From: a bacterium
GTDB taxonomy: Bacteria > Zhuqueibacterota > Zhuqueibacteria > Oceanimicrobiales > Oceanimicrobiaceae
Direction: 5' to 3'
Length of the DNA: 30,172 bases
NCBI GenBank assembly: GCA_046757025.1
Contig: JBHHXN010000053.1
Location: 1-30,172 of the forward strand
Of this stretch, positions 12,045-28,164 are shown in pieces (the first letter of the stretch is position 1; each line of letters begins with the position of its first letter). The notes under the pieces were generated by a model. That model saw only the letters and a list, made by a program, of their open reading frames with translations, was not told where the DNA came from and did not search any database. The translations under genes were made by a program, and so were the position numbers.

Positions 12045-12896
12045 CTATTGACCAGATGGCGGCTCCGGAGGGCGCGGCAATCCTCGAGGTGCTTCTTCTC
12101 CTCCGCCGGCCACCAAAATGGCTGTGGTGACGGTTCCGCCAAGTAAGCTGCCGCCAACCGCCCAAATCCAGGTGGCGATGCCGCCGCTTTTTTCACGCCA
12201 TTTTTTCTGCAAGTTAATGGGTTTGAACCATTCAGAAATGATCGGTTGGATCACACGCGATTTAACTGCCAGCGTAATATTGCCCTGTTCGGTGGATTCA
12301 AAATCATCGCTTACAATCAAGCCAATCATATTGCCTTTATTATCGATCAACGGGGCTCCGTCGATACCAGTTTGGTGGCCGGTGTCGAAGGCAAAATGAT
12401 TTTCATTTGAATCGGTTAATTCAACAGGAATGGAAATCCAATCGTAATCGGTGGCGTGCCCCAGAATGGTAAAGGTTTTACCCGGATGCGCCGACTTGGA
12501 CTCGCCAAAAACGATGGCGGGCTGGGTAAAGGGGAAATTTTTCACAGCAACGATAGCCAAATCCGAATCGAAATCGATCCACCGGTCCACAATAAGACCG
12601 AGCAGCGGATCCGGATAGTCTCTCAGAATGACCGCCACCTTTTCCCTGCCGGCCACCATGCTGTAGGAAGTTAGAACGAAGCCGGCGCCATCTTTGTGAA
12701 TGCCCAAAACCACCCCGGCGCCTATTTTTTTTCCTTCATCCGCAATGAGTTTCACCACGGCGGGGGCTGTTTTGTCATAGCCTTTTTGTGTTAAAACGGC
12801 TTGCGGCGCGGAGGGTTCCGACTGTTCCTGTGCCAACGCATTTTGTAAAAAGAAAGAAACGGTGAGGGCAATGGCTAATTTTATTGTAATATTCAT
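12045..12896 (-). CDS. Secreted trypsin-like (S1/HtrA-type) domain protein, catalytic His and Ser substituted, C-terminal membrane anchor
   Basis: PAVVKL..GAGVVL, GFVLTSYSMV, DSDLAIV, GIDGAPLIDNKGNMIGL; GGAG RBS before ATG 12896; signal peptide ending ALA. Confidence 0.8.
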   Translation of the reverse strand: MNITIKLAIALTVSFFLQNALAQEQSEPSAPQAVLTQKGYDKTAPAVVKLIADEGKKIGAGVVLGIHKDGAGFVLTSYSMVAGREKVAVILRDYPDPLLGLIVDRWIDFDSDLAIVAVKNFPFTQPAIVFGESKSAHPGKTFTILGHATDYDWISIPVELTDSNENHFAFDTGHQTGIDGAPLIDNKGNMIGLIVSDDFESTEQGNITLAVKSRVIQPIISEWFKPINLQKKWREKSGGIATWIWAVGGSLLGGTVTTAILVAGGGEEAPRGLPRPPEPPSGQ

Positions 12897-12934
12897 GTTA
12901 TTCTCCACGAATTGATATTTTACAGCCAATTCAG

Positions 12935-15900
12935 TTACTTGACCAGAATCATTTTGCGAGTCTGCGAAAAGTCACCGGCAATGATTTGGTAAATGTACAG
13001 TCCGCTGGCGACGGCCCGGCCGTGGTTGTCCTGTCCATTCCAGGTGACAATATGAAAGCCCGTTTCTTTCGGCTCCTCATCGAGCAGCGTGGCCACAAGC
13101 CTTCCTAAGAGATCATAAACCTGTAAACTGACTTTTCCCGAGCTTGGCAAACCAAAGCGAATGGTCGTCGTCGGGTTGAACGGATTCGGGAAATTCTGGG
13201 AAAGTTCGAATTCTTTAGGAATCAACGCGTCGTCGGCAGTTTCATCTGCCATGAAGCCAGATTTGCCCACCAGCAGCTTGAGGGTTTTGACGCTGCCGTA
13301 TTGCCCGGTTGGAAACGAGTACTCATTTTCCCGGCGGAGATTTTGCAGGATGTTCAACTTTTCATCCAGCAACCTGATTTCCAGGTCGCTGGGCAAAACC
13401 TCCAGCCCTGCAATGTGAATCTTAGCCTCCGCGTTGGCAATATTTGATTTCACCTGGAAACTCCAGGTCTGGCCTTCGCCGATTTGCTTTCGATAGTCCG
13501 TGGTGTAATTGCCCGGAAACGTCGGCCACTCTTTCCTTGGAAACAAAATGGAAATGTAGTCGCCAATGGGAGGAGGTTCTGTGTAATCCCACGGATCCCA
13601 GGTGTCGGAAGCGAATTCGATGATTCCAATGTAATTGAATTCGTCCCGGGCCTGCCCGCAAATCGCTTTGAGTTGGAGCGCCCAGTCGGGGGTGGATGCG
13701 TTGGCTCGTGCAAGTGAACGATTAACGCCTTCGGAAGCCACCGGCGGGATCTCGATTTCGACTTCGGAGCGGCCGCGATTAAAGATGAAATATCCTTTGT
13801 ATGGTTGCAATTTCTCAGCGATGCCGTAAGTGTCTTCGTAGAGAAATGGTGCCTGGACGAGTGTGTCACTTTCGGCTGGGATGAGCACCGAATCCCAGTC
13901 CACGTCGAAAGCAAAGGGATGCCCGACTTGATTCCAACCGGGCTTTAAAGACAAAACGTAATTCGTGTCCGCGCGTAAGGATTTTCCTGCACCAAAATCA
14001 ATGACTCGGTCTCTGGCCGAGATCAACCAGTAAGCCTTTCCCGGAGTAAATGTGAAGGTGTTGGCGTTGAGTGAGTCGCGTTCCACATACACGTTGTCCC
14101 GGTAATAAAACAACCGCCAGCTTGTGGTATCGTAAACGCCAAATCCGGAGGCGTCGAAAATCGAATCGGCGCTGGATTCGGTTAGCAGATTGGGCGCGGA
14201 AATCATCCGGTAAGCGGTTTGGGAAGAACCCCGGGTTATTTGTCTGGTCTGTACCGCACTTCCAAAATTCACCACCACAAAAAAGGTGTCTGATGTGGCA
14301 CTATTTAACAAGGTGTCCTGGCTGCTTACGAAATATTCCAGTCCTCTTTCAGTAATAAATGATTCGGGAAAGGCGGTTCTAAAAGTGTCTGCCGCCACTG
14401 CACTCATCGCGAAGGATTCAAAGTTGCCTGCGCCGCCCTTGCGAATATTTAGCATGACATTTTTTATCGGAGTATTGTCGATGGCGCTTGCGGTTACCTG
14501 AATAGAGTCGCCCACGCTGATTTCTTTGGCGGTGTCCGACAGGGCGATTGTCGGCCCGGCAGCGGCGGCGATGGTAAAAGTCTGCTCGCTTTCATCAAAT
14601 ATGAATCCAGCATTGCTGGCGCTGATTTTAATTTTACAGTCTGTTTTTGCCGGTCCCGTTACTTCATAAAAAAATCGTTCATCCAGGATAGCGACGGCTC
14701 GGGCGATCACCTCCTGGTAAGTTGTTCCGCCATCGCGCGACAATTCAATGGAAATGCTGTCTAATTCACCCTGAGAGGTCCATTTAATTTCTTGTGTACT
14801 GCCGATTTCCCAGACGGCGGTGGAGGTATCCGGACTCAGAAGTGTGACGTTTCGATTTTCACCGGGTATTCCCGGTTTGCTTATTCTTTGTAAATATATA
14901 TCGTAATGGCTGCCACTGCGCCGGTCTTCCCAGACCACGATGGCGCCGCCCAGGTTGTCGTCGATGAGCGTGGGATTTTGCTGGATGTTGGCGGCGGTTG
15001 AAACCGCGATACCATTCTCCCCCCAGTCGGTTTTACCGTTAGGCTCGATGAGTTGTGCATAGATGTCGGTTTGACCTGCGCGATCGTCTTCCCAGGCCAC
15101 GATGATGCCATCTCTTTTGTTGGAAATCAACACGGGATTTTCCTGGTCGCCGATAGCTCTCACAATATCGAACTCTGATTCGATTTCCTGGCCCATTGAA
15201 TTTAATCTCTGGATACGGACATCCCGGTCCTGGCCCGAGCCGAGGTCGATCCAGAGTACACAGATGGTATCGGCGTTTACTCGCACGATTTTGACATCTT
15301 CCTTTTTGCCGGCGCTGTTCGAGATGGTTCTGCCGAAATTATCCCATTGGATCATGCCTTGTGAATTGATGCGCTGAACTTTTATTTCATGATTTGTGCT
15401 CAATGTTTCGGATGGGGCAATCCAGGCGACAATGGCCCCGCCCCTGCCATCTGCTATGGCGGCAGGTACTGTATTATTCTCTAATGAAGAACTTAAAGCG
15501 ACTTCAGTGCCCGGCCAAACAGGGTTCATGCTTCCGTCTAATCGTGCAGCATAAACTTGTAAACTGGCCGGATTGCGCTGGTCCGCCCACACAACGATGA
15601 CACCTCTATTTTCATCGGAGATAATGGTTGGCGGTTGCTCGGGTTGCGTGACTTTGTGATTTTCGTTTAGTTTGCTAAAAGATGGCCATTGCGGGCTGCC
15701 TTTATTATCTAATTTTTGTAGAAAAATAAGGTGGTTGCCATCCCGAAAAGTGTAGGACGCCACGATCGCGCCGAAGATGCTGTCGCGAATGATGTTCGGA
15801 AATACGTAGTTGTTGCCTGTTTGAATGCGGGCGCCGTTGACGCCGTTAGGGCCCCAATGCCCCTGCCCTAAAGGTAGGCTGATTTTTTGAGCGTAAATGT

Positions 15901-16291
15901 CAAAATTGGAGCCGATGGAGTTGCGATCGTCCTGCCAGGTTACAAAAGCGCCTGTATCTCCATTTGCAACCAGAGTCGGGGCGATTTGGCTGCCTTGTAA
16001 AACGGCAATGTCATTGTTGAAATCATCGTCAAGCTGACCAGACGCTTTAATTCTCGCCATAAAGATATCGTCATTACCATTGCGATCGTCCTGCCAAACA
16101 ATGATCGCGCCTCCGTTGCCATCGGAGATTACACGGGCATTGGTTTGATTGCCTTCAAAAACTGCAATTCCGTTGTTCACAGCTGCATTATTTGACCACT
16201 GAGCAGGTGCCTGGCCAAATGCCAAAATCAAAATAACGGTTTCCAACACCCCTTTATGCTTCATGAATTTACTCTTGCTTTTGAATCGCAT
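12935..16291 (-). CDS. Large secreted protein: 8 propeller-like repeats, Ig-like domains, C-terminal T9SS-A/FlgD-Ig-like domain
   Basis: Repeats of type DGxGGAIIVWxDxR...DIYAQRI; C-terminus FELSQNFPNPFNPTTTIRF...WNGQDNHGRAVASGLYIY...RKMILVK. Confidence 0.88.
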   Translation of the reverse strand: MRFKSKSKFMKHKGVLETVILILAFGQAPAQWSNNAAVNNGIAVFEGNQTNARVISDGNGGAIIVWQDDRNGNDDIFMARIKASGQLDDDFNNDIAVLQGSQIAPTLVANGDTGAFVTWQDDRNSIGSNFDIYAQKISLPLGQGHWGPNGVNGARIQTGNNYVFPNIIRDSIFGAIVASYTFRDGNHLIFLQKLDNKGSPQWPSFSKLNENHKVTQPEQPPTIISDENRGVIVVWADQRNPASLQVYAARLDGSMNPVWPGTEVALSSSLENNTVPAAIADGRGGAIVAWIAPSETLSTNHEIKVQRINSQGMIQWDNFGRTISNSAGKKEDVKIVRVNADTICVLWIDLGSGQDRDVRIQRLNSMGQEIESEFDIVRAIGDQENPVLISNKRDGIIVAWEDDRAGQTDIYAQLIEPNGKTDWGENGIAVSTAANIQQNPTLIDDNLGGAIVVWEDRRSGSHYDIYLQRISKPGIPGENRNVTLLSPDTSTAVWEIGSTQEIKWTSQGELDSISIELSRDGGTTYQEVIARAVAILDERFFYEVTGPAKTDCKIKISASNAGFIFDESEQTFTIAAAAGPTIALSDTAKEISVGDSIQVTASAIDNTPIKNVMLNIRKGGAGNFESFAMSAVAADTFRTAFPESFITERGLEYFVSSQDTLLNSATSDTFFVVVNFGSAVQTRQITRGSSQTAYRMISAPNLLTESSADSIFDASGFGVYDTTSWRLFYYRDNVYVERDSLNANTFTFTPGKAYWLISARDRVIDFGAGKSLRADTNYVLSLKPGWNQVGHPFAFDVDWDSVLIPAESDTLVQAPFLYEDTYGIAEKLQPYKGYFIFNRGRSEVEIEIPPVASEGVNRSLARANASTPDWALQLKAICGQARDEFNYIGIIEFASDTWDPWDYTEPPPIGDYISILFPRKEWPTFPGNYTTDYRKQIGEGQTWSFQVKSNIANAEAKIHIAGLEVLPSDLEIRLLDEKLNILQNLRRENEYSFPTGQYGSVKTLKLLVGKSGFMADETADDALIPKEFELSQNFPNPFNPTTTIRFGLPSSGKVSLQVYDLLGRLVATLLDEEPKETGFHIVTWNGQDNHGRAVASGLYIYQIIAGDFSQTRKMILVK

Positions 16292-16491
16292 AAGTCATCT
16301 CTTACTTTTGTTAGAGTTTAATTTTTATTTTCAACCCTGAACATTGGTTTAAAATCGTAGTTTCTAAAATAAAAAAGATAAGATAGTTAATTTGCGTTAT
16401 GAGCCATTTGCTAAGAAAGGATATTTTGGCAGGCATGGTGTATATTTGCAATAATCCCTTTTCCATAGTAATTTATTAAAATATGGAAATT

Positions 16492-16520
16492 AATATATAT
16501 TTTTCGCAAAAAATTGTCAA
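16492..16520 (-). promoter_or_regulatory. Sigma70-type promoter for the 16291 gene
   Basis: Minus strand TTGACA (16520-16515), 17-nt spacer, TATATT (16497-16492). Confidence 0.55.
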
Positions 16521-16839
16521 GAGAATTCTGATATGTTTTTAAACTTTAATAAATTATAGAGATATGTGACAAAACGATGATTTCTGAAAAGAGGTGGGTA
16601 ATTTTTAACGTTGTTTTTCAAATACAATTTTACATACATTTAAATCAGGGTCAATTCTACTCAATGAGATTTTGGAATTCTCCCGACCAGATTGGTGCAA
16701 GTTACGATTTGGGCAACGAAAAACGGAGTCGTAAAAATGGGTGTCTCAGCGAAAGAACGGTGAATTTTAATGGCGCGATGCCATTGCTGCAGAAAATGGA
16801 TAAATAGATGATTCGCAGAACAGAAGGGTAATGAATCTC

Positions 16840-18399
16840 TTAGTTTGCAATCAAAATGCGCAACGTCGATTCCAGCTCTTTGTGCCTGGAATTGTCTTCA
16901 TTGTAGGTGATAACGATATCACACTTTTTGTCTGAATTGAGGTGCATGGCTCGAACCATTTCGCCGTTTTGAGGGAGATGTGTTAAGTATTTTGCGCTAA
17001 CTTTTGAATCGAGGATTTTTTCGCTGCCCCAGAAAAAGATCAGCATTTTTTCATCGAGGCTACTCAAAATGTCCAGCAAACCGTCGCCATTAAAGTCTGC
17101 GATTTCGTACACCGGCGAAGTCGCCCCGCCGCGATATGAAAATCGTACCACCAGACTGTTTTTCATGTCCGGCTTTTCCGGATAAAATCCACGTTTGTTC
17201 ATCAGATAAACTTCTGCCTGGATTTCCACGCTTTTGGTGAGCAGCATGCTGATGATGTTTTTCAGGCCAACATTGACCACGGGTATGATCAAATCGTATC
17301 GGCCATCCCGATTCAAATCCAGAATATCCAGAACCAACTGCGTGCCGCCAGGCTGGATGATTTGATCCGGCTCTTTTTCAAAGAACACCCGGTCAATTGA
17401 GTCGGTGCTGTCTTTTTTTCCGAGATGGATTCGTACTTCGTTGTAGGGATTGACAAAGCTCTTTTTGGTTGAAACACGAATGCTCACCACATCCAAAAGG
17501 CCGTCGTGGTTTAAATCGAGGATTTTTTTAAGAAATGTCCTCTCACTTTTATCTCCAATTCGGGTACGCTGAATTTTGGCGCCTTTCCAGATTTCTCCAA
17601 AAAACAAATCGATTTTGTGATGGCACTCTTTTGCAAAATAACCTAGGTTGTCCTGGCAGTAAACCACCAGACTATCCTGATAGATTCCTATCAAATCTTT
17701 TCGGCCATCGGCGTTAAAATCTTGTAGAGCGATATACGGCATGGCGTATTGCGCTTCGGTTTTATTGCCGACTGAAAAACGTGGATCGTAAAAACCGCTT
17801 ACTTTTGTTTCCGCACGTAAGGGCACTTCATTGATCAACCAATTGCGGCTTTCCGGGTTGCGGAAGTAAATATCGCACCTTGTGAAATGCGGTACGATGA
17901 CTTCATCGACAAAGTCGCCATTCAAATCGGCCACAAAATTCCAGTTCTGCAGTCGGTTTTTGTTCGAAAGCATAAAAATCGATTGTGCGGCAAACAATCT
18001 TTGCGGCGTCAGATCCAATTGATTCTGTTTAAATGGATAAAAATAAACCCCGCTGCTGGTAAAAAAAACAAACTCCTTTTGAAAATCACCCTGTACATCG
18101 CCAATGTCGTAGAGAATGATGTCGTCCGAAACTTTAAATTCCTGCGACGGCTTTCCGTCAAACCCGTTTGGTTTTTGTAAATAAACCGAAATCCATCTTT
18201 CCTGTCCAGGATTTTCCGCCTTTTTCTTTAATATGAGCAGAATATCTTTCAGGCCGTCATTATTCAAATCTTCGATGTGGTAGGACCCTAACTCGCCCTC
18301 AAATTGCAGGTCATAAGTATGATATAATTCCTTAACTGATTTTGCACTGCTGAGCAGGTTAAAATTTATCAAAAGAGTGAATAAACATAGATGCATCAT
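16840..18399 (-). CDS. Secreted FG-GAP/VCBS repeat protein
   Basis: Ca-binding blades DLNNDGLKD, DLNGDFVDE, DFNADGRKD, DLNHDGLLD, DLNRDGRYD, DFNGDGLLD; signal peptide. Confidence 0.88.
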   Translation of the reverse strand: MMHLCLFTLLINFNLLSSAKSVKELYHTYDLQFEGELGSYHIEDLNNDGLKDILLILKKKAENPGQERWISVYLQKPNGFDGKPSQEFKVSDDIILYDIGDVQGDFQKEFVFFTSSGVYFYPFKQNQLDLTPQRLFAAQSIFMLSNKNRLQNWNFVADLNGDFVDEVIVPHFTRCDIYFRNPESRNWLINEVPLRAETKVSGFYDPRFSVGNKTEAQYAMPYIALQDFNADGRKDLIGIYQDSLVVYCQDNLGYFAKECHHKIDLFFGEIWKGAKIQRTRIGDKSERTFLKKILDLNHDGLLDVVSIRVSTKKSFVNPYNEVRIHLGKKDSTDSIDRVFFEKEPDQIIQPGGTQLVLDILDLNRDGRYDLIIPVVNVGLKNIISMLLTKSVEIQAEVYLMNKRGFYPEKPDMKNSLVVRFSYRGGATSPVYEIADFNGDGLLDILSSLDEKMLIFFWGSEKILDSKVSAKYLTHLPQNGEMVRAMHLNSDKKCDIVITYNEDNSRHKELESTLRILIAN

Positions 18400-18684: not shown

Positions 18685-18699
18685 TGGCATGTATGTTGC
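18685..18699 (+). promoter_or_regulatory. Sigma54 (RpoN) -24/-12 promoter
   Basis: TGGCATGTATGTTGC matches TGGCACG-N4-TTGC at all but one fixed position, with exact GG-N10-GC spacing. Confidence 0.55.
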
Positions 18700-18831
18700 G
18701 CAGAGCTTTCTTCAAACAGATGAATAAAATAGCGGGAGTGGGTAATATTTACCACAAAATGTTTTTAGAGGAGCAGGGCCAACAAAAAAACGGTTACAAT
18801 TTTTTTCAGGGATTTTAAACTGTTCTGGGTT

Positions 18832-19425
18832 TTGGTTTTCGTTTTGGGTAACTGGAACACCACCTGGGGTCAATCAAAAATAACTAAATGGCAATTACAG
18901 AGCTCCATCGGATGGTGGTTTTACGATCAGGCTTTTACGTTCGATGGAAGTCCCGGTTTTGGGTTAGGCATTGGCTATCGCACACATGATTTTCTTCAGC
19001 TTAACCTGGATTTCAAGTTCAGTCCTACCCAAAAACGCATTTCTACGGCCATATCACATTTGCACTTAAAAATGTTGATTTACAACTATTCATTGAACCT
19101 GAAAATGTCAAAACATTTCTTCCACGTAAATAAGTTGCAGCCGTTTCTGAACCTGGGCGTGGGAGGCGTGTTAATGCAGCCCCTCGAGAGAACCGTCGAT
19201 TTTGGGGTTTTGAAAAAAATTGATTTGAACCTTTCACCCGATTATAAATGGGCTTTTAATTTTGGAATAGGTATGATATTAACCATCATGCCAAAACTGA
19301 GATTGCAAGTGCTTTATCAAAGATATTATTTTTTAGCAAATCGAATAATCAATGAAGAACCGGGTGACAAGTCGAAAGTTCACCGAAATCATTATTTGGG
19401 AATCGGCTTAGCCACTTCATTTTAA
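18832..19425 (+). CDS. Outer-membrane beta-barrel protein (OmpA/OmpW-like 8-strand type); start uncertain
   Basis: Amphipathic strands (GFGLGIGY, PFLNLGVGG, AFNFGIG), C-terminal Phe (GLATSF). Confidence 0.7.
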   Translation: MVFVLGNWNTTWGQSKITKWQLQSSIGWWFYDQAFTFDGSPGFGLGIGYRTHDFLQLNLDFKFSPTQKRISTAISHLHLKMLIYNYSLNLKMSKHFFHVNKLQPFLNLGVGGVLMQPLERTVDFGVLKKIDLNLSPDYKWAFNFGIGMILTIMPKLRLQVLYQRYYFLANRIINEEPGDKSKVHRNHYLGIGLATSF

Positions 19426-19441
19426 TCAACGAAAGTAACTA

Positions 19442-20326
19442 TTGAACTCGAATCAATTGAAATTGTTTGTCTTGAATCATCATTTCATCATCATTCACTT
19501 ATTTTTGTCCTGGTTGATGATAATCCTTTGTGCCAATCACCTGTTTGCTCAAAAAGCGGTTATTGCTATGAACGAAGTCCAAATCTATGCCTTACCGCTG
19601 GAGGACAGTGAATCGGTGGCCCGGCTTGCCAAAGGCCACATCGTGACCATTGTTGGCAAGCGCGGCGATTGGGTTAAAGTCGCTTTTAATGATGGCCAAA
19701 AGGGCTGGATGAAATTGCTGGCGCCGCAAAAATTGTCAAAACAGAATCAAAAATCGACTAACGATTCCCATCAAAACGGAGTACACAAAATAACTGCCAA
19801 AAACGGCCAATTGCGGGAGCATGGCGAAATCAACAGTAAAGAATTCGTAGATAAATTGCGTGAGCAACCGCAGAGTCCAGGCGATTCGGACGATCACGTT
19901 TACCGTCGATTCGGCTATGCCTTTGGCATGGGCTTGATCCAGTCGGATTATACCTATAGTTGGAAATTTGTTTTTCACTCGCAACCCCGATTGGCCTTAG
20001 AGGGATCGTTTAAGCACGTTCTGGGAGGCGCTGCGGATTCCTATTTTATCCTGGCAAATTTATCTTATCTATTTCGGGAGCGCAAAAAATTCGTGCCTTT
20101 TGCCACCGCCGGCCTGGGCGTGATCAACACGGCGCCGGTGCGCAGCATCGACTCGCAAACCGTTTCCAATATGGCGGTGAATTTTGGAGTCGGTGCGCGC
20201 AAATACATGCGGAAAAATTTATCCCTGGTGCTGAACACCAGTCTGTTCACGGCGTTTGTGGGAAAAGGCATTCGAATATATCCAGAGATCACCGTAAGTC
20301 TGTTAATCGGCAAATTCTGGCAATAA
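19442..20326 (+). CDS. SH3b-domain plus outer-membrane beta-barrel protein
   Basis: Signal ending LFA; SH3b-like VARLAKGHIVTIVGKRGDWVKV...KGWM; barrel strands PFATAGLG, AVNFGVGA. Confidence 0.78.
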   Translation: MNSNQLKLFVLNHHFIIIHLFLSWLMIILCANHLFAQKAVIAMNEVQIYALPLEDSESVARLAKGHIVTIVGKRGDWVKVAFNDGQKGWMKLLAPQKLSKQNQKSTNDSHQNGVHKITAKNGQLREHGEINSKEFVDKLREQPQSPGDSDDHVYRRFGYAFGMGLIQSDYTYSWKFVFHSQPRLALEGSFKHVLGGAADSYFILANLSYLFRERKKFVPFATAGLGVINTAPVRSIDSQTVSNMAVNFGVGARKYMRKNLSLVLNTSLFTAFVGKGIRIYPEITVSLLIGKFWQ

Positions 20327-20340
20327 TCAGGAAAACGATC

Positions 20341-20880
20341 ATGAACAATCGTATTGGATACTTAACCATTTTGATATTGCAGCTTTTCTGGGATTCGCTG
20401 TTTGGTCAGAATATTTCTCGGGAACACGAGCTGTTCCCATTTGTGGGCTTTTATGCCCCGGACCGCTTTCAGAACTCATTGACACTGGGCGTCCGCTACG
20501 AAAATCATCTGGATAGGCGTTTCGCATTTGGCGCCACGGTGGGATTCGCCAAAGCCGGTCAGGATTTTTTTCAAAAAGCGGTGGGGGCCGCAGCCGAACA
20601 GGGCAGCGCCACGGTTATTTTCTACGATGGTCGGTTAACTTATGCCATGAGAATGAACGAGGTCATCCCCTACGGTGTGTTTGGTCTGGGAGTCACACGG
20701 CAGCATTCGGAGTCGAATCTGACCCTCAGTCTCGGTGTGGGGATCAAATTTCCAGCCGGTGAAAAGTCCTATTGGCGATTCGAAATAAATGATCACATTT
20801 TTTCCAGCGGCCAGGGGAATACTTCCTGGACCAACAACAATCTGGAAATTTCTGGTGGAATTTCATTCTATTTACAGTAG
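20341..20880 (+). CDS. Outer-membrane beta-barrel protein
   Basis: Signal ending LFG; ELFPFVGFY, PYGVFGLG, WRFEINDHI, NNLEISGGISF. Confidence 0.8.
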   Translation: MNNRIGYLTILILQLFWDSLFGQNISREHELFPFVGFYAPDRFQNSLTLGVRYENHLDRRFAFGATVGFAKAGQDFFQKAVGAAAEQGSATVIFYDGRLTYAMRMNEVIPYGVFGLGVTRQHSESNLTLSLGVGIKFPAGEKSYWRFEINDHIFSSGQGNTSWTNNNLEISGGISFYLQ

Positions 20881-21052
20881 GTAAAATGATGAGTTGAAAA
20901 CGATTTGATGGCGCATTAAAATTCGTTGATTCTAAGAACTTACCGTTCCATTTTTGAATTTATCAAGACGACCTAATTGAAAAATTATGGAATGCTTGTA
21001 ATAAGTTCTGGATGGGATATGGAGTTTAAACTTTACAACAGGAGGTGCATCT

Positions 21053-22945
21053 ATGATCAAACTCCATCGCCTGAATAGAAACAACGAGCGAGGAAGAAAA
21101 TTAAGACACATCATTTTTTTGGTTGGGTTGTGCAACTGGCAATTCATGAACTGTACCGGCAGCGTACCGGATGATCTGATCCTGGAATCGCAGCCGGCAG
21201 GCATCATTTTTGTCAAGGCCACCCGCACGAATACCCTGAACAGTTTTTCACGCGGCGGCAATCTTTTTTCGCTAATACCGGCCTCCCCGGATGGTAAATT
21301 GACCAATCTCACCAATTTGGAGGCGGGCGACGTGGCCGATCCGGAGATTTCCTTCGATGGCCTGAAAGTTCTGTTTGCAATGCGCCGAAACAGCGGTGAG
21401 CGCTTTCATATCCACGAAATGAACGTGGACGGTTCTGGGCTGCGTCAGCTCACTTTTGACGCGGTGCGGGATGATTTCGACCCCACTTACCTGCCCAACG
21501 GCAAAATCCTATTCACGTCTAATCGCCCCGGTTTTATCGATGAATATAACAAGCAAAATGCGGAGGTCATGCACGTCATGGAGGTGGACGGCTCGAATAT
21601 CGAGCAGATATCGTTCAATGCCAGCGACGATTTCGATCCCATCGTCACCAAAACCGGGCACGTTGTTTACACGCGCTGGGAGCATCATGGGCCCATCAAC
21701 CGATTCCCATTGTTCATCACCAATCCCGATGGCCACGGTACGTTTACCTTTTTCAGTCCGCACAATCATCGAACTTTTTTCCATCCGCGGGAGCTGGCCG
21801 ATGGTTCCATCATCGCGGTGAAATCGAATATGGTTAACGGCGATCGCGGGCCGCTGGTCATCATAAAAAATACTTCTACGGCTGGCGAGCCGTTGGAAGA
21901 GGGGTTCATGGAAATCATCACGCCAGAAATCGAATTGAACGGCCCGCCCTACAGCAAAGGCGTATTTAAATATCCCCATCCCCTGCCCGATGGCCGGATC
22001 TTGGTGTCGTATTCTCCGCCGCACACCAGCAGTGAGGAGGCGGACTACGGTCTTTACACCCTCAACACGGATGGCAGCGATTTAAAACTGCTCTACAATG
22101 ACCCGCAATTTCAGGAGTTCGACGCCGTGGTCATCGGCGACCGCGCTATTCCGCCGGTCATCAATTCGAAGCTGGACAAAGCGCAAACCACCGGCGTGTT
22201 CACGGTGCAGAATGCTTATTTCCGTCAGGAGCGAGACGGCCAGGTGCGCCCCGATCAAACCATCCGAGAAATCCGACAGGTCATGGTGATCGAGGGGATG
22301 GTGCGCCCCAAAGGCGACCGCGCGCCTATCGGAATGACCAATTTCGAACAGAAACGTATTTTGGGTGTGGCGCCCGTGCAAACGGACGGCTCCTTCTCCA
22401 TCAGAGTGCCGGCCAATATTCCGCTGTCGTTCAATACGCTGGATTCACTGGGCCGAGCCCTGGTGGTGAAACGAAACTGGGTCACTATTCGACCGGGAGA
22501 ACATTTCGAAAAGTGCAGCGGCTGCCACGGACCCCGCGGACGCAGCTCGAACAATCCGAATCCGCTGGCAGCCTCTTTGCCGCCCACCGACCTGAACGTA
22601 CCGGCGGCGCAGCGAGAGGATGTCAGTTTTGGCACGGCTATCGAGCCCATCATCGCGGCAAAATGCACCGGCTGCCACAGCGGGGCGGCGCCCGCCGCCA
22701 ATTTACCGCTGACTTTGACGAAAGATGAAAATGACGGGGCCTTCTCAGTAGCGTACGTTCGTCTACTGGAAGACAGCGGTTATGTGCGAGCGCCCTTTTC
22801 GCGCAGAAGCAAATTGATCGAACGATTGCTGGGGCTGGGCGACTACCAGGCCAGAGGGCCACATCCGGCGGGAGAACAGACATTAAATTCGGACGAAGTA
22901 CGCAAATTCATTAACTGGATCGACCTGGGCGGGCAATATCGATAG
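21053..22945 (+). CDS. Hydrazine-synthase-alpha (HzsA)-related lipoprotein: PD40/TolB propeller, HzsA middle domain, two CxxCH heme motifs
   Basis: AGGAGG RBS; probable lipobox FMNC; DPEISFDG, DFDPTYLPNGKILFTSNR, YTRWEH; LGVAPVQTDGSFSIRVPANIPL...LDSLGRA; CSGCH (22514-22528) and CTGCH (22664-22678); C-terminal WIDLG. Confidence 0.85.
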   Translation: MIKLHRLNRNNERGRKLRHIIFLVGLCNWQFMNCTGSVPDDLILESQPAGIIFVKATRTNTLNSFSRGGNLFSLIPASPDGKLTNLTNLEAGDVADPEISFDGLKVLFAMRRNSGERFHIHEMNVDGSGLRQLTFDAVRDDFDPTYLPNGKILFTSNRPGFIDEYNKQNAEVMHVMEVDGSNIEQISFNASDDFDPIVTKTGHVVYTRWEHHGPINRFPLFITNPDGHGTFTFFSPHNHRTFFHPRELADGSIIAVKSNMVNGDRGPLVIIKNTSTAGEPLEEGFMEIITPEIELNGPPYSKGVFKYPHPLPDGRILVSYSPPHTSSEEADYGLYTLNTDGSDLKLLYNDPQFQEFDAVVIGDRAIPPVINSKLDKAQTTGVFTVQNAYFRQERDGQVRPDQTIREIRQVMVIEGMVRPKGDRAPIGMTNFEQKRILGVAPVQTDGSFSIRVPANIPLSFNTLDSLGRALVVKRNWVTIRPGEHFEKCSGCHGPRGRSSNNPNPLAASLPPTDLNVPAAQREDVSFGTAIEPIIAAKCTGCHSGAAPAANLPLTLTKDENDGAFSVAYVRLLEDSGYVRAPFSRRSKLIERLLGLGDYQARGPHPAGEQTLNSDEVRKFINWIDLGGQYR

Positions 22946-22983
22946 GCTTTTTATATTTCGCTATTTCCGTTTCAAAAAAAAAT

Positions 22984-23135
22984 AAACTTGTGTAAAAACT
23001 CAGTACATCGAATGAAAAAGAGACACCCCTATTGTCATTCTGGAAGAATCTTTTTAATAAACAGCACCTTGCGACAAATTTAATAAGTTACTTTCAGAAT
23101 AACAAAAACGAAGGTTATGGGTTTTTACGCAGTCT
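22984..23135. mobile_element. Degenerate MITE-like element with terminal and internal inverted repeats
   Basis: aaacttgtgtaaaaactc vs reverse complement of 23119-23135 (agactgcgtaaaaaccc); inner tgtcattctggaag (23033-23046) / ctttcagaataaca (23091-23104), 12/14 complementary. Confidence 0.5.
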
Positions 23136-23208
23136 GAAATAATGTGGAATTATATCAATCATGAAAACATTCGATTACTCTGATACTGAAATATTTTCAA
23201 ATAAAAAA

Positions 23209-23448
23209 ATGCACACCACGCAATTGACTAAACTCCTATTTTGGTTTATTTCGTTTATACTTTCGATTTTGTTCGTCCTGAACGGCTGTGCCGCCGTGCG
23301 ACCCTATGAGCGCGAATACCTGGCGGATCGCATCATGCGGTTTGATTCCGACCGCGAAGAAATGGTGATGGAGCGGCATTTTATCGAAACGCGCGAAGGC
23401 AGCATTGGCGGTTTCGGCGGCGCGGGCGGCGGCTGTGCTTGCAATTAG
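23209..23448 (+). CDS. DUF4266 family lipoprotein (alternative start 23161)
   Basis: Lipobox LNGC, VRPYEREYLADRIM, REGSIGG and terminal GGGCACN, all characteristic of DUF4266. Confidence 0.88.
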   Translation: MHTTQLTKLLFWFISFILSILFVLNGCAAVRPYEREYLADRIMRFDSDREEMVMERHFIETREGSIGGFGGAGGGCACN

Positions 23449-23503
23449 AAAAGTGTCTAAATAAAAGGCAGTTTAGTTATAAATGGATTATTAGAAAAAA
23501 AAT

Positions 23504-24616
23504 ATGCAAAAAGTCGTGCTCAAATATTCAGTGGTCTGTTCAGCTGTCCTGTTCTGGGTCTCAACCCTGCAATCAGACGATAAAATCAGTCTGCGCACCA
23601 ATATTTTCAATGACAATTCCGGTACATCGGTGCACTCACCGACAGTGGAAATTGTCAAAGATATTTTGCTGAACAGCCTGCTTTCTGTTCGCTACAGTCT
23701 GGACCGGGTGCTGATTCCACCGGTGCGGGGTCTTTCTGCCACGCCATCGCCGGTGGATGGCGTGACTGGAGCCTCCCGGCCCATCAGCCAGGACCAGCCC
23801 GGCAACCAATCGTTTGTCAAAGAACGCAATGAAATCATCGTCGGCCTTACGGCGCCGGGTTTTGATCTTAGTTACTACTTTAGCAAGGAGAACGATTATG
23901 TGGGTCAAATGGCCACGTTGGCCGCGAATTTTGATTTCAATCAGAAAAATAGCAACCTGTCGCTCAGTTATGGTTACGGCTGGGATCGCATTGAACCCCT
24001 GGGCGCCGATACCCTGCACACGAAATCCACGCATCATTTCAATTTAACCGTGACGCAGGTTTTGAACAAAAAAGTCATCGCTCGTGTCGGCGCCGATCTG
24101 TCGCTGGTGTCGGGTTTTCAAAGCAATCCGTATCGGTCGGTTTTTGCGGAAGGACAGCATCGTTTGGAAATTCATCCGGTGAATCGCAAACGCGCAGCCG
24201 TTTATTTAAAGGTAAACCGGTACTTCAAAACCAGAACGTCTCTCAACATGGGTTACCGCTTTTATCGAGATAACTGGCAAATTCAGTCGCACACCGTGGA
24301 TATATTTTATCACCAATACTTCAGTGAAATCGTTCTCATTCGCTATCGTTATCGGTACTACGTTCAGTCCGCGGCTTATTTTTATCGCAGCGCGTACACC
24401 GTTTCACAGGCGTTTATGACTTCGGATTATAAGCTGGAACCGTTTACCTCACACTTGTTCGGTTTAAAACTGGAGTACCGTCTGCAGGATCTGGTTCAGA
24501 ACAGTCTTTTGAATTTTCTCGCAAAGGCCACTTTTGACGCCAAGTACGAGCGTTATTTTTCATCCAATGAGTTTACAGCGGATGTTTATCAGATCGGGCT
24601 GGTATTCAATTATTAA
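23504..24616 (+). CDS. DUF3570 family outer-membrane beta-barrel protein
   Basis: VDGVTGAS, SKENDY, GFQSNPYR, YRFYRDNWQIQSHT, RYRYYVQSAAYFY, SDYKL; directly downstream of DUF4266; C-terminal aromatic residue. Confidence 0.85.
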   Translation: MQKVVLKYSVVCSAVLFWVSTLQSDDKISLRTNIFNDNSGTSVHSPTVEIVKDILLNSLLSVRYSLDRVLIPPVRGLSATPSPVDGVTGASRPISQDQPGNQSFVKERNEIIVGLTAPGFDLSYYFSKENDYVGQMATLAANFDFNQKNSNLSLSYGYGWDRIEPLGADTLHTKSTHHFNLTVTQVLNKKVIARVGADLSLVSGFQSNPYRSVFAEGQHRLEIHPVNRKRAAVYLKVNRYFKTRTSLNMGYRFYRDNWQIQSHTVDIFYHQYFSEIVLIRYRYRYYVQSAAYFYRSAYTVSQAFMTSDYKLEPFTSHLFGLKLEYRLQDLVQNSLLNFLAKATFDAKYERYFSSNEFTADVYQIGLVFNY

Positions 24617-24635
24617 CATCTGAGGAATGTAAATC

Positions 24636-27263
24636 ATGAAGAAGAAATATACATTTGGATTTGCAATTATGGCCGTTTTGTTGATGGCGGCTTTTGGGTT
24701 GTATGCTTTCAAAAAGGGCCATCCGACTTCACTGGGATTTTTACAGGCGCAAATCGACGACCGCGGCCTGCTGGAGCTGGCAGTGGATGAGTTGCGTTCG
24801 GACTTAAAAACGGTCGAACCAGCGCTTTTGAGATCCATCTCTCCGCTAATTACTGCAGAGCTGAATAGATCATCTGATTGGGAAAACAGCTCACTTTCTT
24901 ACCTTGCCAATTTTCAAGTAAACAGCGGTAAGAAAATCACGGCCTTTCATTTTGAAGTTGACTTCATCGAAATGGACAACCTTCATACCGTGGTGCACGG
25001 TACGGTTCGTACTGAGCAGCAACGTAAACAGAGATTCAAGCTTATTTTTAATAAAGAAGATAGCCGATGGAAATTGATCGATTCCCGTAACTTTTTCTCG
25101 CTCTGGATGGAAATGCTTCAAAAAGACGCCTTTGAGAATTTGGCAAGCCACCCCACACGTGAGTTTGTGATCTACGATGAGCCGTCAGCATCTGACGAGA
25201 ACACGTTAACGCGCATACCCATCAGCGAAGAGCACGATATCGATCGTCTGACGCAATCCACCACTTTACATAAATTAAACCGGCAGCTTTTCCAGAAACC
25301 TTATTCCGGAGTCCTTTATTCAACGATTACACAATTTAACGAGGCGCCCTTTATTAGCGCACGCTATGTTCAGCTCGTCACCGACCCTGCCTGGAATCGG
25401 GTGGTGTACGGCGATTATGATGGCTGGCTCAAAGCGTATGGCAATACGGGTGCGGGCTCGGAGGATCTCAATCGTCCCCACGGATTGGATCGCGACATTG
25501 AAGGAAATATCTACGTTGCAGATACCGGAAATCACCGCATCGTGGTTTTGAGGTTAGTTGGAAACGGAAAAGACACCGAGCTGAAATTTCAGTTTGCTTT
25601 TGGCTCGGGGCAATTGTTGCGCCCTTATGATGTAGCATGGGATGACGCAGGGACGCCGTTTGACCGTGCAGATGACATCGTTTGGGTGGCGGACACCGGA
25701 CAGGACCGCATCGTTGGCTACGCCGTAAATGACCGGCAAGCCTCGGTGGCTTACCTGTATGGTCAACCTGGAAAAGCTGCTGGTAACTTTTTTGAACCCC
25801 AAGCCCTGGCTGTGGGTAAATTTGACGGTCGCTCCAACGGCAAACTGTACGTCGCGGATACAGGCAATCGCCGGCTTGTGCAGCTCGCCGTATTCGATGA
25901 TCGACTAGAGTGGGTAGCGGAATTCGCAGGAAAGCCGGAAAGTCAGTTTACTTCCATCGATGTGGATCACTGGGGCAACCTGTATGTGGCTGACCGCAGT
26001 TATGGCGAGCTCTGGAAACTCACCGCGGATTTTGAACCGCTTGCTGCCATTCACAGCGATAACGAAGCACACATGCAGCCAGTGAATTTGCATGTCACTT
26101 TTGGTCAGTTTATTTCGCAATCGGAAGGAACGCGCTATTGGGCGGGTTTTGACCAGGCGTTTGTGCTGGGAGACTGGTCGCACGATTCGGGTGCCGAGCG
26201 TTATAAGCTCGGACTGGATTTGAACCATTTTTATGTGGTGCTGGCCTCAGAACTGGATAAAGTGTGTGTGCGTGCCAGACTGACGGACCATGCCCGTGTA
26301 GCATTGAATGTCATCGATACCCGCACTGGCCTAACGCTGCGACATTTGCCCGCGCGCTGGATGGTGCCCGGCGACAAGGAGTTTTTCTGGGACCGAAGCG
26401 ATGACATCGGCTGGCAGGTGGAAGCGGGCTACTATCGTTTACAATTGGTTGCCGAATCGAGTTACGGCAATTTTATTGCCATCAAAGAAACGCCGGAATT
26501 CTATTTGCCTTTGTACTACTGGGAAGACTGCGGAGGCGTGGTGCAGGGGGACGCCCATTTAGTTCAGGGCACTCGAGATGCCGATTGGGGTACGCTCCCT
26601 CATCAGACCATAGTAAAACATCCTTCGGAAGTTGTGTACCGTTTCACTGATTTAAATCCCACTGTTGACTATGAATTAAAAGCCCAATTTTTCAACAAGG
26701 TTGGCGCCTATCTGAAGCAAAAAATCATTGTTAACGATCTGATTATATTCGACGAGTTCGAAGTTGTGTCGGGACTTTCAGATGTGAATTGGTTGCAGCT
26801 TCCGAAGCATTTATATGCGGATGGCAAGATAGAAATCCGCATTGTCAAAACCGCAGGCGACGAGGACGCCCTCATTTCACAGCTCTGGCTGCGGGAAGCG
26901 GCATTTGACCCGGCACGTCCACCGGTGCTGCACGAGAGCGGAGAGCAGAAACCAGATGCATTTTCGTTGTCACAGAATTATCCCAATCCGTTCAACCCTT
27001 CCACCACCATTGAATTTGGCGTACCCTCCGGCAATACTGGCAGGGTCTCTTTGAAGATTCTAAATATTCTCGGCCAGACCGTTAAAACGCTGGTGGACGA
27101 ATATCTGCCGGGGGGGCGCCATTTGGTTATCTGGAATGGACGCAACCAAAGCAATCGGCCGGTCGCAAGCGGGGTGTATTTTTATCAATTGAGCACAATT
27201 GATCCCGTAAAACTATCTCGACAGGAAATCCTGGCAGTGAAAAAATTGCTATTGATCAAGTAA
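24636..27263 (+). CDS. Secreted NHL-repeat protein with internal FlgD-Ig-like domain and C-terminal T9SS-A/FlgD-like domain
   Basis: NHL repeats LNRPHGL..GNIYVADTGNHRI, VWVADTGQDRI, LYVADTGNRRL, GNLYVADR; C-terminus FSLSQNYPNPFNPSTTIEF...WNGRNQSNRPVASGVYFY...KKLLLIK. Confidence 0.85.
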   Translation: MKKKYTFGFAIMAVLLMAAFGLYAFKKGHPTSLGFLQAQIDDRGLLELAVDELRSDLKTVEPALLRSISPLITAELNRSSDWENSSLSYLANFQVNSGKKITAFHFEVDFIEMDNLHTVVHGTVRTEQQRKQRFKLIFNKEDSRWKLIDSRNFFSLWMEMLQKDAFENLASHPTREFVIYDEPSASDENTLTRIPISEEHDIDRLTQSTTLHKLNRQLFQKPYSGVLYSTITQFNEAPFISARYVQLVTDPAWNRVVYGDYDGWLKAYGNTGAGSEDLNRPHGLDRDIEGNIYVADTGNHRIVVLRLVGNGKDTELKFQFAFGSGQLLRPYDVAWDDAGTPFDRADDIVWVADTGQDRIVGYAVNDRQASVAYLYGQPGKAAGNFFEPQALAVGKFDGRSNGKLYVADTGNRRLVQLAVFDDRLEWVAEFAGKPESQFTSIDVDHWGNLYVADRSYGELWKLTADFEPLAAIHSDNEAHMQPVNLHVTFGQFISQSEGTRYWAGFDQAFVLGDWSHDSGAERYKLGLDLNHFYVVLASELDKVCVRARLTDHARVALNVIDTRTGLTLRHLPARWMVPGDKEFFWDRSDDIGWQVEAGYYRLQLVAESSYGNFIAIKETPEFYLPLYYWEDCGGVVQGDAHLVQGTRDADWGTLPHQTIVKHPSEVVYRFTDLNPTVDYELKAQFFNKVGAYLKQKIIVNDLIIFDEFEVVSGLSDVNWLQLPKHLYADGKIEIRIVKTAGDEDALISQLWLREAAFDPARPPVLHESGEQKPDAFSLSQNYPNPFNPSTTIEFGVPSGNTGRVSLKILNILGQTVKTLVDEYLPGGRHLVIWNGRNQSNRPVASGVYFYQLSTIDPVKLSRQEILAVKKLLLIK

Positions 27264-27325
27264 AGACACGTTTCATTTAAAAGACTTTTAAGAGCCCCCT
27301 TTATCCCTCCTCCTAATTGAGCCAG

Positions 27326-27351
27326 AGGCCCGGGTCATCCGATTCGGGCCT
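27326..27351. terminator. Hairpin between convergent genes (probable terminator)
   Basis: AGGCCCGGGT-CATCCG-ATTCGGGCCT, 10-bp stem including two G-U pairs, followed by AT-rich sequence. Confidence 0.45.
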
Positions 27352-27492
27352 TAAATTTTAATTGAATTATTTTTTGAGCAGCCGTTTAGAAAGAACGGTT
27401 CCTGCTTTCAAGAGTCCTGCGTATTACCATCTCCACATAGTCAGTTTTATTTGATATCAACAAACTGGAATGAAGGTGAGAAGTTGCAACCG

Positions 27493-28164
27493 TTATTTTT
27501 GAGAAAGGTCGGGTTCTTCGCCGGTCTCCTTGTATTGCGTCAGCCATTTTTCGGTTTCCTCCAAAGCCGGTTTGAATCCCCACGGTCCGCGTGCCGCCGC
27601 AACCGCCAGTTTGCCGTCTTTGCGCACGAGGTACAAACGATCGGGATGGGCTCGATAGGCTTGGCTCACTTTGTTATCCATATTGTCGATGAGGCAAGGA
27701 ATGGTCACTTTTTCTTCTTTCATCATCATCTCGGCGGTGGTGCAGCGCTGACTGTAGTCTTTGGCCTCGTTGATTCCCAGGTCAATGGCATAAGGCACCG
27801 GCCGGCTGTCGTCAGCGGCATGCGCTTCGTTAATGTACACGATGCGGAATTCTGCGATATCCTTGTAGTCGGTGTACATTTTTTGCATTTTCCCCAACTG
27901 GGAACGAAACGGCGGTCAGGTATAGCTGCCGAAAAAAAGCACCACCGGCCGCTTATTTCTGAAACTGGCCAGGTCGGTTTCATCTTTACCATCCAGAGAG
28001 AGCAGTTTAAAGAGCGGCGCCGTGTCGCCGACTTTGGGGGCGTCGTCATTTCGGTTCGTTCGTCCTGGTCTTGCGGGCCGTTTAAAATTGCGTTGCGCAA
28101 AAACCTCGTCGCTGACGTATGTTGCGGCAAGAAAAAATATGAATAAATAAACGAAATGTTTCAT
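27493..28164 (-). CDS. Iodothyronine-deiodinase-like (thioredoxin-fold) selenoprotein, 223 aa, in-frame UGA = Sec at codon 83
   Basis: ORFs 27916-28197 and 27493-27897 are in the same frame and separated only by TGA (27918-27916). Read-through gives KRPVVLFFGSYT-U-PPFRSQL, then VYINEAH, DNMDN..AY.AHPDRLYLV and GPWGF, all deiodinase motifs. GGAG RBS before ATG 28164; signal peptide. Confidence 0.9.
27888..27909 (-). promoter_or_regulatory. Bacterial SECIS-like hairpin
   Basis: After UGA-CCGCCG: UUU(CG)UUCCC-AGUU-GGGGAAAA; 16 nt separate the UGA from the apical loop, which has G at its second position. Confidence 0.65.

Follow-up and report, generated by a model that had tools for sequence, protein, structure and literature searches.

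A conserved cell-envelope operon uniting an HzsA-like dihaem protein with a DUF3570 barrel and DUF4266 in a bacterium of the Zhuqueibacterota

Contig JBHHXN010000053.1 of the assembly GCA_046757025.1, from a bacterium of the family Oceanimicrobiaceae, was analysed over its positions 1 to 30,172, a stretch of 30,172 nucleotides (nt) referred to below as the window. It holds seven co-oriented genes for exported proteins, namely three small outer-membrane barrels (B1 to B3), a dihaem protein resembling the hydrazine synthase alpha subunit HzsA, a DUF4266 lipoprotein, a DUF3570 barrel and an NHL beta-propeller protein (Table 1). Here we report that this set is a conserved cell-envelope operon uniting the HzsA-like protein with DUF3570 and DUF4266, and that the locus is a tlpA-less copy of a conserved variant of a published flavinylation system, whose clusters of ApbE, DUF3570, a thioredoxin-like protein and DUF4266 are named 'DsbD systems' in passages of Meheust et al. 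2021 (PMC8238504). An earlier reading made from the letters of the window, here called the sequence-only reading, had described the seven open reading frames (ORFs), and all were found, with the domains and both haem motifs it had given; as it had also said, neither tlpA nor apbE is among the cluster genes. The gaps measure 16, 14, 172, 215, 55 and 19 nt in gene order, three of the six falling under the 20 nt claimed for several of them. The gene set thus stood, and the start at 18685 did not, as it lies upstream of any B1 frame, the stop-to-stop frame opening at 18769. The three small barrel genes are likewise present, with B3 alone scoring above the thresholds of OMP_b-brl and TIGR04565. Signal peptides and lipoboxes were called by eye, without a predictor. 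No ATG or GTG start in the B1 frame (18769-19425) yields a full signal peptide, and no indel occurs there in contigs of four sequencing runs; B1 is the most divergent gene of the set (23-36% identity to relatives) and looks broken in two loci (L033 and L050). An alternative start of the DUF4266 gene is possible at 23209.

Table 1. Features of the operon and its downstream neighbour, in window coordinates
Feature	Position	Strand	Remark
B1, small outer-membrane barrel	18832..19425	+	PF13505 E 7e-5, below cut-off
B2, SH3 domain and small outer-membrane barrel	19442..20326	+	SH3_3 E 1e-8; TIGR04565 weak
B3, small outer-membrane barrel, TIGR04565 type	20341..20880	+	61.5 bits, cut-off 60
HzsA-like dihaem protein, predicted lipoprotein (Cys34)	21053..22945	+	PF18582 E 8e-20
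Haem motif 1, CSGCH, aa 488 (HzsA haem alpha-I position)	22514..22528	+	
Haem motif 2, CTGCH, aa 538 (HzsA haem alpha-II position)	22664..22678	+	
Dispersed palindromic intergenic repeat, approximate ends	23024..23140	.	in the gap where relatives have tlpA
DUF4266 lipoprotein, Gly-rich C-terminal CxC tail, ends GGGCACN	23161..23448	+	E 1.5e-17
DUF3570, predicted 16-stranded outer-membrane barrel	23504..24616	+	PF12094 E 1.2e-43
DGVTGAS, aa 85-91, predicted ApbE flavinylation site, loop between strands 3 and 4	23756..23776	+	
NHL beta-propeller protein, FlgD-like domains, type IX secretion system (T9SS) type A-like C-terminal tail	24636..27263	+	
Terminator-like hairpin, 12 pairs, 3' of NHL gene	27325..27352	+	consensus match only
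Deiodinase-like selenoprotein, neighbour excluded from the system	27493..28164	-	

A full-length orthologue of the HzsA-like protein is present in 16 of the 60 relatives searched and, counting this genome, in 22 of 133 genomes of the phylum, spread over three families. The survey of gene context read 24 loci from 23 relative genomes, which are kin and thus not independent, and reached down to about 40% identity; a contig scan with one protein gave five loci. HzsA-like proteins of 58-72% identity lie on five named contigs, four of KSB1 and one of Calditrichaceae. In all 21 relative genomes with readable DNA at that point, tlpA directly follows the hzsA-like gene; in one of two further relatives tlpA starts the next contig, and in the other the contig ends. 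DUF3570 shares a contig with the hzsA-like gene in 20/23 relatives and the NHL gene is present in 21/23, the remainder being cut by contig ends in both cases. Another family has a reordered operon with the same members (barrels, DUF3570, NHL, HzsA-like, TlpA, DUF4266), and one locus (L037) is without the small barrels. Since the combination recurs in 23 relative genomes and persists through rearrangement of the gene order, it is not a matter of chance. The gene apbE is found in cis in none of the 24 KSB1-type loci; it occurs elsewhere in the genome in 17/17 operon-bearing genomes tested, a count outside which seven later genomes fall. A strong COX1 match was obtained in all 22 operon-bearing genomes, against any match in 75 of the 133, an association that is only a lead because just three families are involved.

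The same arrangement was met in metagenomes, where we used the best 80 of at least 512 confirmed loci, scanned with profiles; the set holds 8 pairs at ≥95% identity, and some of its loci may duplicate the relative genomes. TlpA is encoded in 47 of the 50 loci with at least 800 nt past the hzsA-like gene, TlpA, DUF4266 and DUF3570 together in 30 of the 33 with 2.5 kb, and NHL in 22 of the 23 with 4.5 kb, which, with the relatives, makes the NHL protein a stable member of the cluster. Upstream and on the same strand, apbE is present in 16/80 loci; where 3.5 kb upstream can be read, it is found in 12/20 distant against 0/12 close loci. Thirteen of the 80 loci hold apbE, the hzsA-like gene, tlpA and DUF3570 all together, and the haem protein therefore accompanies the flavin and thiol parts.

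Some distant loci differ in content. A high-GC group (L073, L076, L090, L095, L100, L104 and L109) has a longer operon in the order apbE, small lipoprotein, barrel, core, lipoprotein, two barrels, two unknown proteins and a tetratricopeptide repeat (TPR) protein of ~950 aa; the small lipoprotein with one CX3-5CH motif was seen in 42 loci and the TPR protein in 10. Searching the KSB1 loci with profiles of these accessory genes gave no clear counterparts, and the present genome gives matches to the profiles of the TPR family and of family F9. At L042:9034-15620 and L043:9206-12636, where the HzsA-like genes are of 30-34% identity, the place of the DUF3570 module is taken by genes for multihaem proteins with 10 and 3 CxxCH motifs.

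Flavinylation of DUF3570 by ApbE has been demonstrated for a Chlorobium protein at the motif [S/T]GA[S/T] (in passages of PMC8238504), and DGVTGAS in the window protein is of the same motif type. The strict motif is kept in all 16 KSB1-type DUF3570s, and D-x-x-[ST]-x-A-S in all 39 metagenome proteins. To judge from these motifs, an ApbE encoded at another site in the genome likely attaches flavin to the window DUF3570. The HzsA-linked proteins carry one site each (16/16 KSB1-type, 39/39 metagenome), against two in 13 paralogues of type A; in a further subtype, one of two DUF3570s has no site and the other has one.

The DUF3570 model is a barrel with a predicted local distance difference test score (pLDDT) of 90.9 and 16 strands, read from the DSSP list. 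In it, DGVTGAS falls in a long, disordered loop joining strands 3 and 4, which strand parity places on the outer side. At 6-12% identity, the folds most like it are again outer-membrane barrels, namely PelB (Z 19.5, root-mean-square deviation (rmsd) 3.5, 256 aligned), BcsC (Z 19.4) and a polysaccharide secretin (Z 18.2), followed by unrelated porins (Z 17.3) and MtrB (Z 13.7, rmsd 8.0); a profile search found no solved DUF3570 homologue. C50 and C52 of the DUF4266 CxC are invariant in 16/16 proteins. When DUF3570 and DUF4266, two of the three proteins that the sequence-only reading had advised modelling together, were modelled as a complex, an interface was predicted, with a score of 0.66 against 0.01 for the best of three controls. 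Of 157 solved complexes, 116 attain the mark set for this score, as do 2 of 215 mismatched pairs; the benchmark applies roughly because our own alignments were used. The runs agree in ≥70% of contacts, with a partner pLDDT of ≥61. The predicted contacts of DUF4266 fall on every second residue of most barrel strands, which points to the lumen; its residues 16-17 meet the periplasmic rim and residues 37-39 the outer one. The modelling thus predicts DUF4266 to be a plug inside a 16-stranded DUF3570 barrel, with its tail toward the outer face near the flavin loop. In the passages of PMC8238504 on the flavinylation system, DUF3570 as a barrel and DUF4266 as a plug are undescribed, and 'beta-barrel' and 'porin' have zero occurrences.

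The HzsA-like protein has the architecture of HzsA, with a propeller, an HZS_alpha middle domain and two CxxCH motifs, and its model (pLDDT 93.7) matches HzsA 5c2v_A with a TM score of 0.82 (E 3e-38, 21% identity). In HzsA, Tyr591 is the proximal ligand and Cys303 a zinc ligand at haem alpha-I, and His772 is the distal ligand of haem alpha-II (in passages of PMC12758564 and PMC12607021). An equivalent of Tyr591 is lacking, the alignment showing a two-residue gap there; the zinc ligand Cys303 aligns with His237, and His604 (19/21) falls within ~3 residues of the His772 position. DEY (163), RW.H (RWEHH 208) and His237 are invariant in the 21 aligned proteins. DEY and RW[ED]H recur in 79 of the 80 metagenome proteins, which were selected by nearby conserved patterns, and in about half to two thirds of 85 broader homologues; being near-universal in the close set and less frequent in the broader one, the conserved residues point to a subfamily-specific pocket. 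The protein likely combines a bis-His electron-entry haem (His604) with an active-site haem beside the DEY/RWEHH/His237 pocket. Alternative substrates have been proposed for widespread non-anammox HzsA-like proteins, and hzs-like genes in KSB1 assemblies have already been noted, with no DUF3570 or NHL context in the passages concerned (PMC10732223).

The tail of the NHL protein scores 23.1 bits with TIGR04183, whose cut-off is 23; FlgD_ig is above and Por_Secre_tail below its cut-off. Of the T9SS machinery, SprA was found in the same genome, along with a PorV-like match at 237 against 250 bits. Structure matches of the NHL protein are NHL+FlgD clusters, the Atlas search giving no feature match, and a PDB profile search returned generic NHL propellers, HzsB being absent among the 60 of 62 matches listed.

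Possible redox partners are encoded elsewhere in the genome, which has two apbE genes, a DsbD (PF02683, E 7e-51, on contig C82 and not in cis) and four cytochrome c assembly genes. Contig C184 (L004:476-4580) carries a second cluster, composed of a small haem-motif lipoprotein, TlpA, DUF4266, DUF3570, a NusG-II-domain protein and ApbE, so that one of the two apbE genes closes it. This second DUF3570 module is conserved in the lineage (L004, L135, L137-L147), with a DUF4266 ending in GGCGCG and a two-site DUF3570; its small lipoprotein, with CX4CH and CXXCH motifs and no Pfam match, was seen in 8 of the 13 loci. The C184 TlpA is the closest match in the genome to the cluster TlpA of the relatives (32-48%), and a quick tree places it in the type A clade of paralogues (12 of 64 rows, with a support of 99).

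We propose, with a probability of roughly 0.45, that the operon encodes a thiol-flavin-haem module in which the barrel, the DUF4266 plug and the flavin exchange electrons with the HzsA-like protein as a dihaem catalytic part. Thiols move electrons in pairs and haems move them singly, and flavins can do either. To the observed gene content, conservation, motifs and absence of tlpA, and to the predicted barrel, plug and loop side, the proposal adds inferred electron-transfer steps. DsbD would reduce a periplasmic TlpA, here likely the C184 paralogue, which would in turn reduce the CxC of the DUF4266 plug; the CxC would pass two electrons to the single flavin mononucleotide (FMN), and the FMN would deliver them one by one to a haem of the HzsA-like protein. 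The NHL protein and the small barrels would be likely surface or scaffold partners. Such a relay would account for the joint occurrence of the thiol, flavin and haem parts. A bolder form, which we consider unlikely, is a haem-free trans-outer-membrane device in which DUF4266, threaded through the 16-stranded barrel, would bring its CxC dithiol to a covalently bound FMN at the cell surface, so that electron pairs from DsbD-TlpA would be split and passed singly to a dihaem enzyme, itself a member of the family ancestral to the hydrazine synthase alpha subunit; if it were true, the substrate would show the pre-anammox job of the HzsA fold.

Several observations weigh against the proposed relay. 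The strict [ST]GA[ST] motif is present in only 12 of the 39 metagenome DUF3570s, the other 27 carrying T[TSAN]AS, and the loci with apbE in cis are among those with such variants, of which the flavinylation is putative. Residues 45-53 of the plug tail, which include the CxC, have no confident placement in the complex model, and the tail is predicted to run toward the outer rim, with TlpA in the periplasm, so that TlpA could reduce the CxC only if the tail is mobile or the step precedes assembly. The HzsA-like lipoprotein may sit on either face of the outer membrane. The hzsA-like gene stands without the module in 2 of 33 metagenome loci, and the module without the hzsA-like gene in the 13 type A loci. 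Finally, as the C184 TlpA falls in a separate paralogous clade, its cross-talk with the operon is assumed.

The sequence-only reading had interpreted the locus as a heme-based redox variant, in which the haem protein replaces both flavinylation and TlpA and a convergent deiodinase-like protein could, speculatively, supply the thioredoxin role. The analysis supported a conserved envelope redox module and an interface of DUF3570 with DUF4266; it did not support the replacement, which we now regard as very improbable. Such a replacement would agree with the lack of tlpA and apbE in this cluster and of apbE in all 24 KSB1-type loci, and substitution between flavins and cytochromes has precedent in other systems (in passages of PMC8238504). 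The neighbourhood survey that was to set HzsA-like partners against apbE and tlpA found instead that they co-occur: tlpA adjoins the hzsA-like gene in 21/21 relatives and 47/50 metagenome loci, apbE shares the locus in 16/80 and is present elsewhere in 17/17 genomes, and the flavin motif is kept. What remains as a trace of the idea is the single flavin site in HzsA-linked DUF3570s, compared with two in those linked to apbE. The deiodinase-like gene is indeed a convergent gene for an exported selenoprotein, as had been claimed, with an in-frame TGA at 27916-27918 (FGSYT-U-PPF) and a genomic tRNA-Sec. As a partner it was rejected as a chance neighbour, and it has an SxxU motif where all 13 cluster TlpAs examined have WCxxC. 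It is found in 0/24 relative and 0/80 metagenome loci (in nine of the 24, 1.7 kb or more of sequence beyond the NHL gene can be read in the window gene order), a terminator-like hairpin lies between the genes, and at the genome level it occurs in 5/17 operon genomes against 3/11 others. A BLAST comparison of its C-terminal half with a cluster TlpA gave no match, a weak test that excluded the active-site half; seven of eight PF00837 matches in 28 genomes hold an in-frame TGA. This locus gives no evidence of a haem-for-flavin swap, and the HzsA-like protein likely works alongside flavin and thiols, not as their substitute. That the locus might be a hydrazine synthase, or run an anammox-like reaction, is what the full-length HzsA fold match and both haem motifs could suggest, and we give the idea next to no credence: the Tyr591 equivalent is missing and Cys303 is replaced by His, NF052339 scores 117 bits against a cut-off of 800, hzsB and hzsC are not in the cluster, PF03150 was not found in the 94.8% complete genome, and a hydrazine synthase role has been dismissed for such homologues (in passages of PMC12758564 and PMC10732223).

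Two other interpretations of the operon compete with the thiol-flavin-haem module. TlpA might serve maturation, reducing the CxxCH of the apo-HzsA-like protein or freeing the DUF4266 CxC for a metal, with the barrel as a surface reductase or gate of reductive iron or copper uptake; we hold this to be possible, if doubtful. The best NCBIfam match of the cluster TlpA is ResA (E 5e-34, below cut-off), and ResA acts in cytochrome c maturation. In every gene order tlpA is directly behind the hzsA-like gene, the predicted outward CxC and outer flavin loop would suit a surface metal site, and a VIT1 iron transporter is reported for 25 DUF3570 clusters (in passages of PMC8238504). TlpA, however, also stands beside DUF4266 in clusters without the HzsA-like gene, the window copy keeps both haem motifs without tlpA, and no iron or copper transporter was seen among the 22 largest gene families of the 80 loci. 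That the operon instead makes an outer-membrane platform or export channel out of the small barrels, a surface NHL protein and, in distant lineages, a large TPR scaffold, with flavin, thiols and haem as a redox switch or sensor in place of an electron conduit, appears unlikely. It would fit the exporters PelB, BcsC and polysaccharide secretin as the closest DUF3570 folds, the barrels and ~950-aa TPR protein (10 loci) added in distant loci, and the TIGR04565 match of B3; yet the exporter matches are at 6-10% identity with unrelated porins close behind (Z 17.3), the interior of the barrel is predicted to be filled, the KSB1 loci lack the TPR and accessory families, and polymer synthesis genes were not seen in the window cluster.

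The missing tlpA might itself be an artefact of assembly, with two repeat copies flanking tlpA collapsed in an ordinary eight-gene operon, an explanation that covers the tlpA gap only, is compatible with the other readings and seems to us quite improbable. The palindromic repeat in the gap has 83 matches on 65 contigs, and contigs of all four runs end inside it, none bridging the gap; the genome is in 374 contigs, and two relatives (L039 and L040) also have a member of this repeat family between their hzsA-like gene and tlpA. The breaks are accounted for, however, by 31-mers shared with other repeat copies, which have a common core of 47 nt, shorter than a read, and the sequence of the gap looks like a single complete element whose right arm is unique. 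No tlpA remnant was found in the gap (22946-23160) by profile or DNA comparison, nor an orthologous tlpA elsewhere in the assembly, and a second, independent and distant tlpA-less locus (L081:9146-12207) has DUF4266 directly after the HzsA-like gene. The loss of tlpA in this copy is thus likely real, though the join has no independent bridging contig, and the main value of the copy is that of a natural variant without tlpA.

Upstream of the operon lies a divergent trio on the minus strand (12045-18399), encoding an FG-GAP protein, a 1118-aa T9SS-tailed protein and a trypsin-like protein; it is retained, whole or in part, in seven same-family loci and was not seen in other families, and its position probably reflects shared ancestry. 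Three ORFs without a Pfam match lie at 14-562, 725-1177 and 1379-1873, the second and third looking exported by eye. Promoters and terminators in the window are consensus matches only, a terminator scan giving 8 candidates against 13.1 in shuffles, and no Rfam matches were obtained in the window. The stretch is present in four hydrothermal vent metagenome runs, all of one study and two of them possibly its source.

Compared with known systems, the operon is closest in content to the 'DsbD systems', with which it shares a DUF3570 bearing [S/T]GA[S/T], an adjacent CxC-tailed DUF4266, TlpA in the clusters of relatives, and genomic ApbE and DsbD. It differs in having one flavin site rather than two, in the lack of apbE in cis in the lineage and of tlpA here, and in the added HzsA-like protein, NHL protein and three small barrels, which are unnamed in the passages of PMC8238504. 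No literature joining the DUF3570/DUF4266 module with HzsA-like and NHL partners was found in a search that reached few subscription papers; three small supplements of PMC8238504 contain no HZS_alpha, and its cluster annotation table may list HzsA-like neighbours. With HzsA (in passages of PMC12758564; Suarez et al. 2023, PMC10732223) the dihaem protein has in common the propeller, the middle domain, two c-haem motifs and a His near the His772 position; it is set apart by the lack of Tyr591, by His in place of Cys303, by the polar RWEHH pocket, and by a flavin barrel partner in place of beta and gamma subunits. Two orphan families, the flavinylated DUF3570 system and the non-anammox HzsA-like proteins, thereby gain testable partners. 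In porin-cytochrome conduits of the MtrAB type, a large barrel sheathes a decahaem wire. The operon resembles them in pairing the gene of an outer-membrane barrel with that of a c-type cytochrome and in a possible passage of electrons across the outer membrane, and is unlike them in its predicted 16 strands, its haem-free predicted plug and its two-haem enzyme-like protein. LptD-LptE is a barrel plugged by a lipoprotein, and here too a lipoprotein is predicted inside the barrel lumen; the present pair stands apart by a much smaller barrel and plug and by its redox-type motifs, the CxC and the predicted FMN site.

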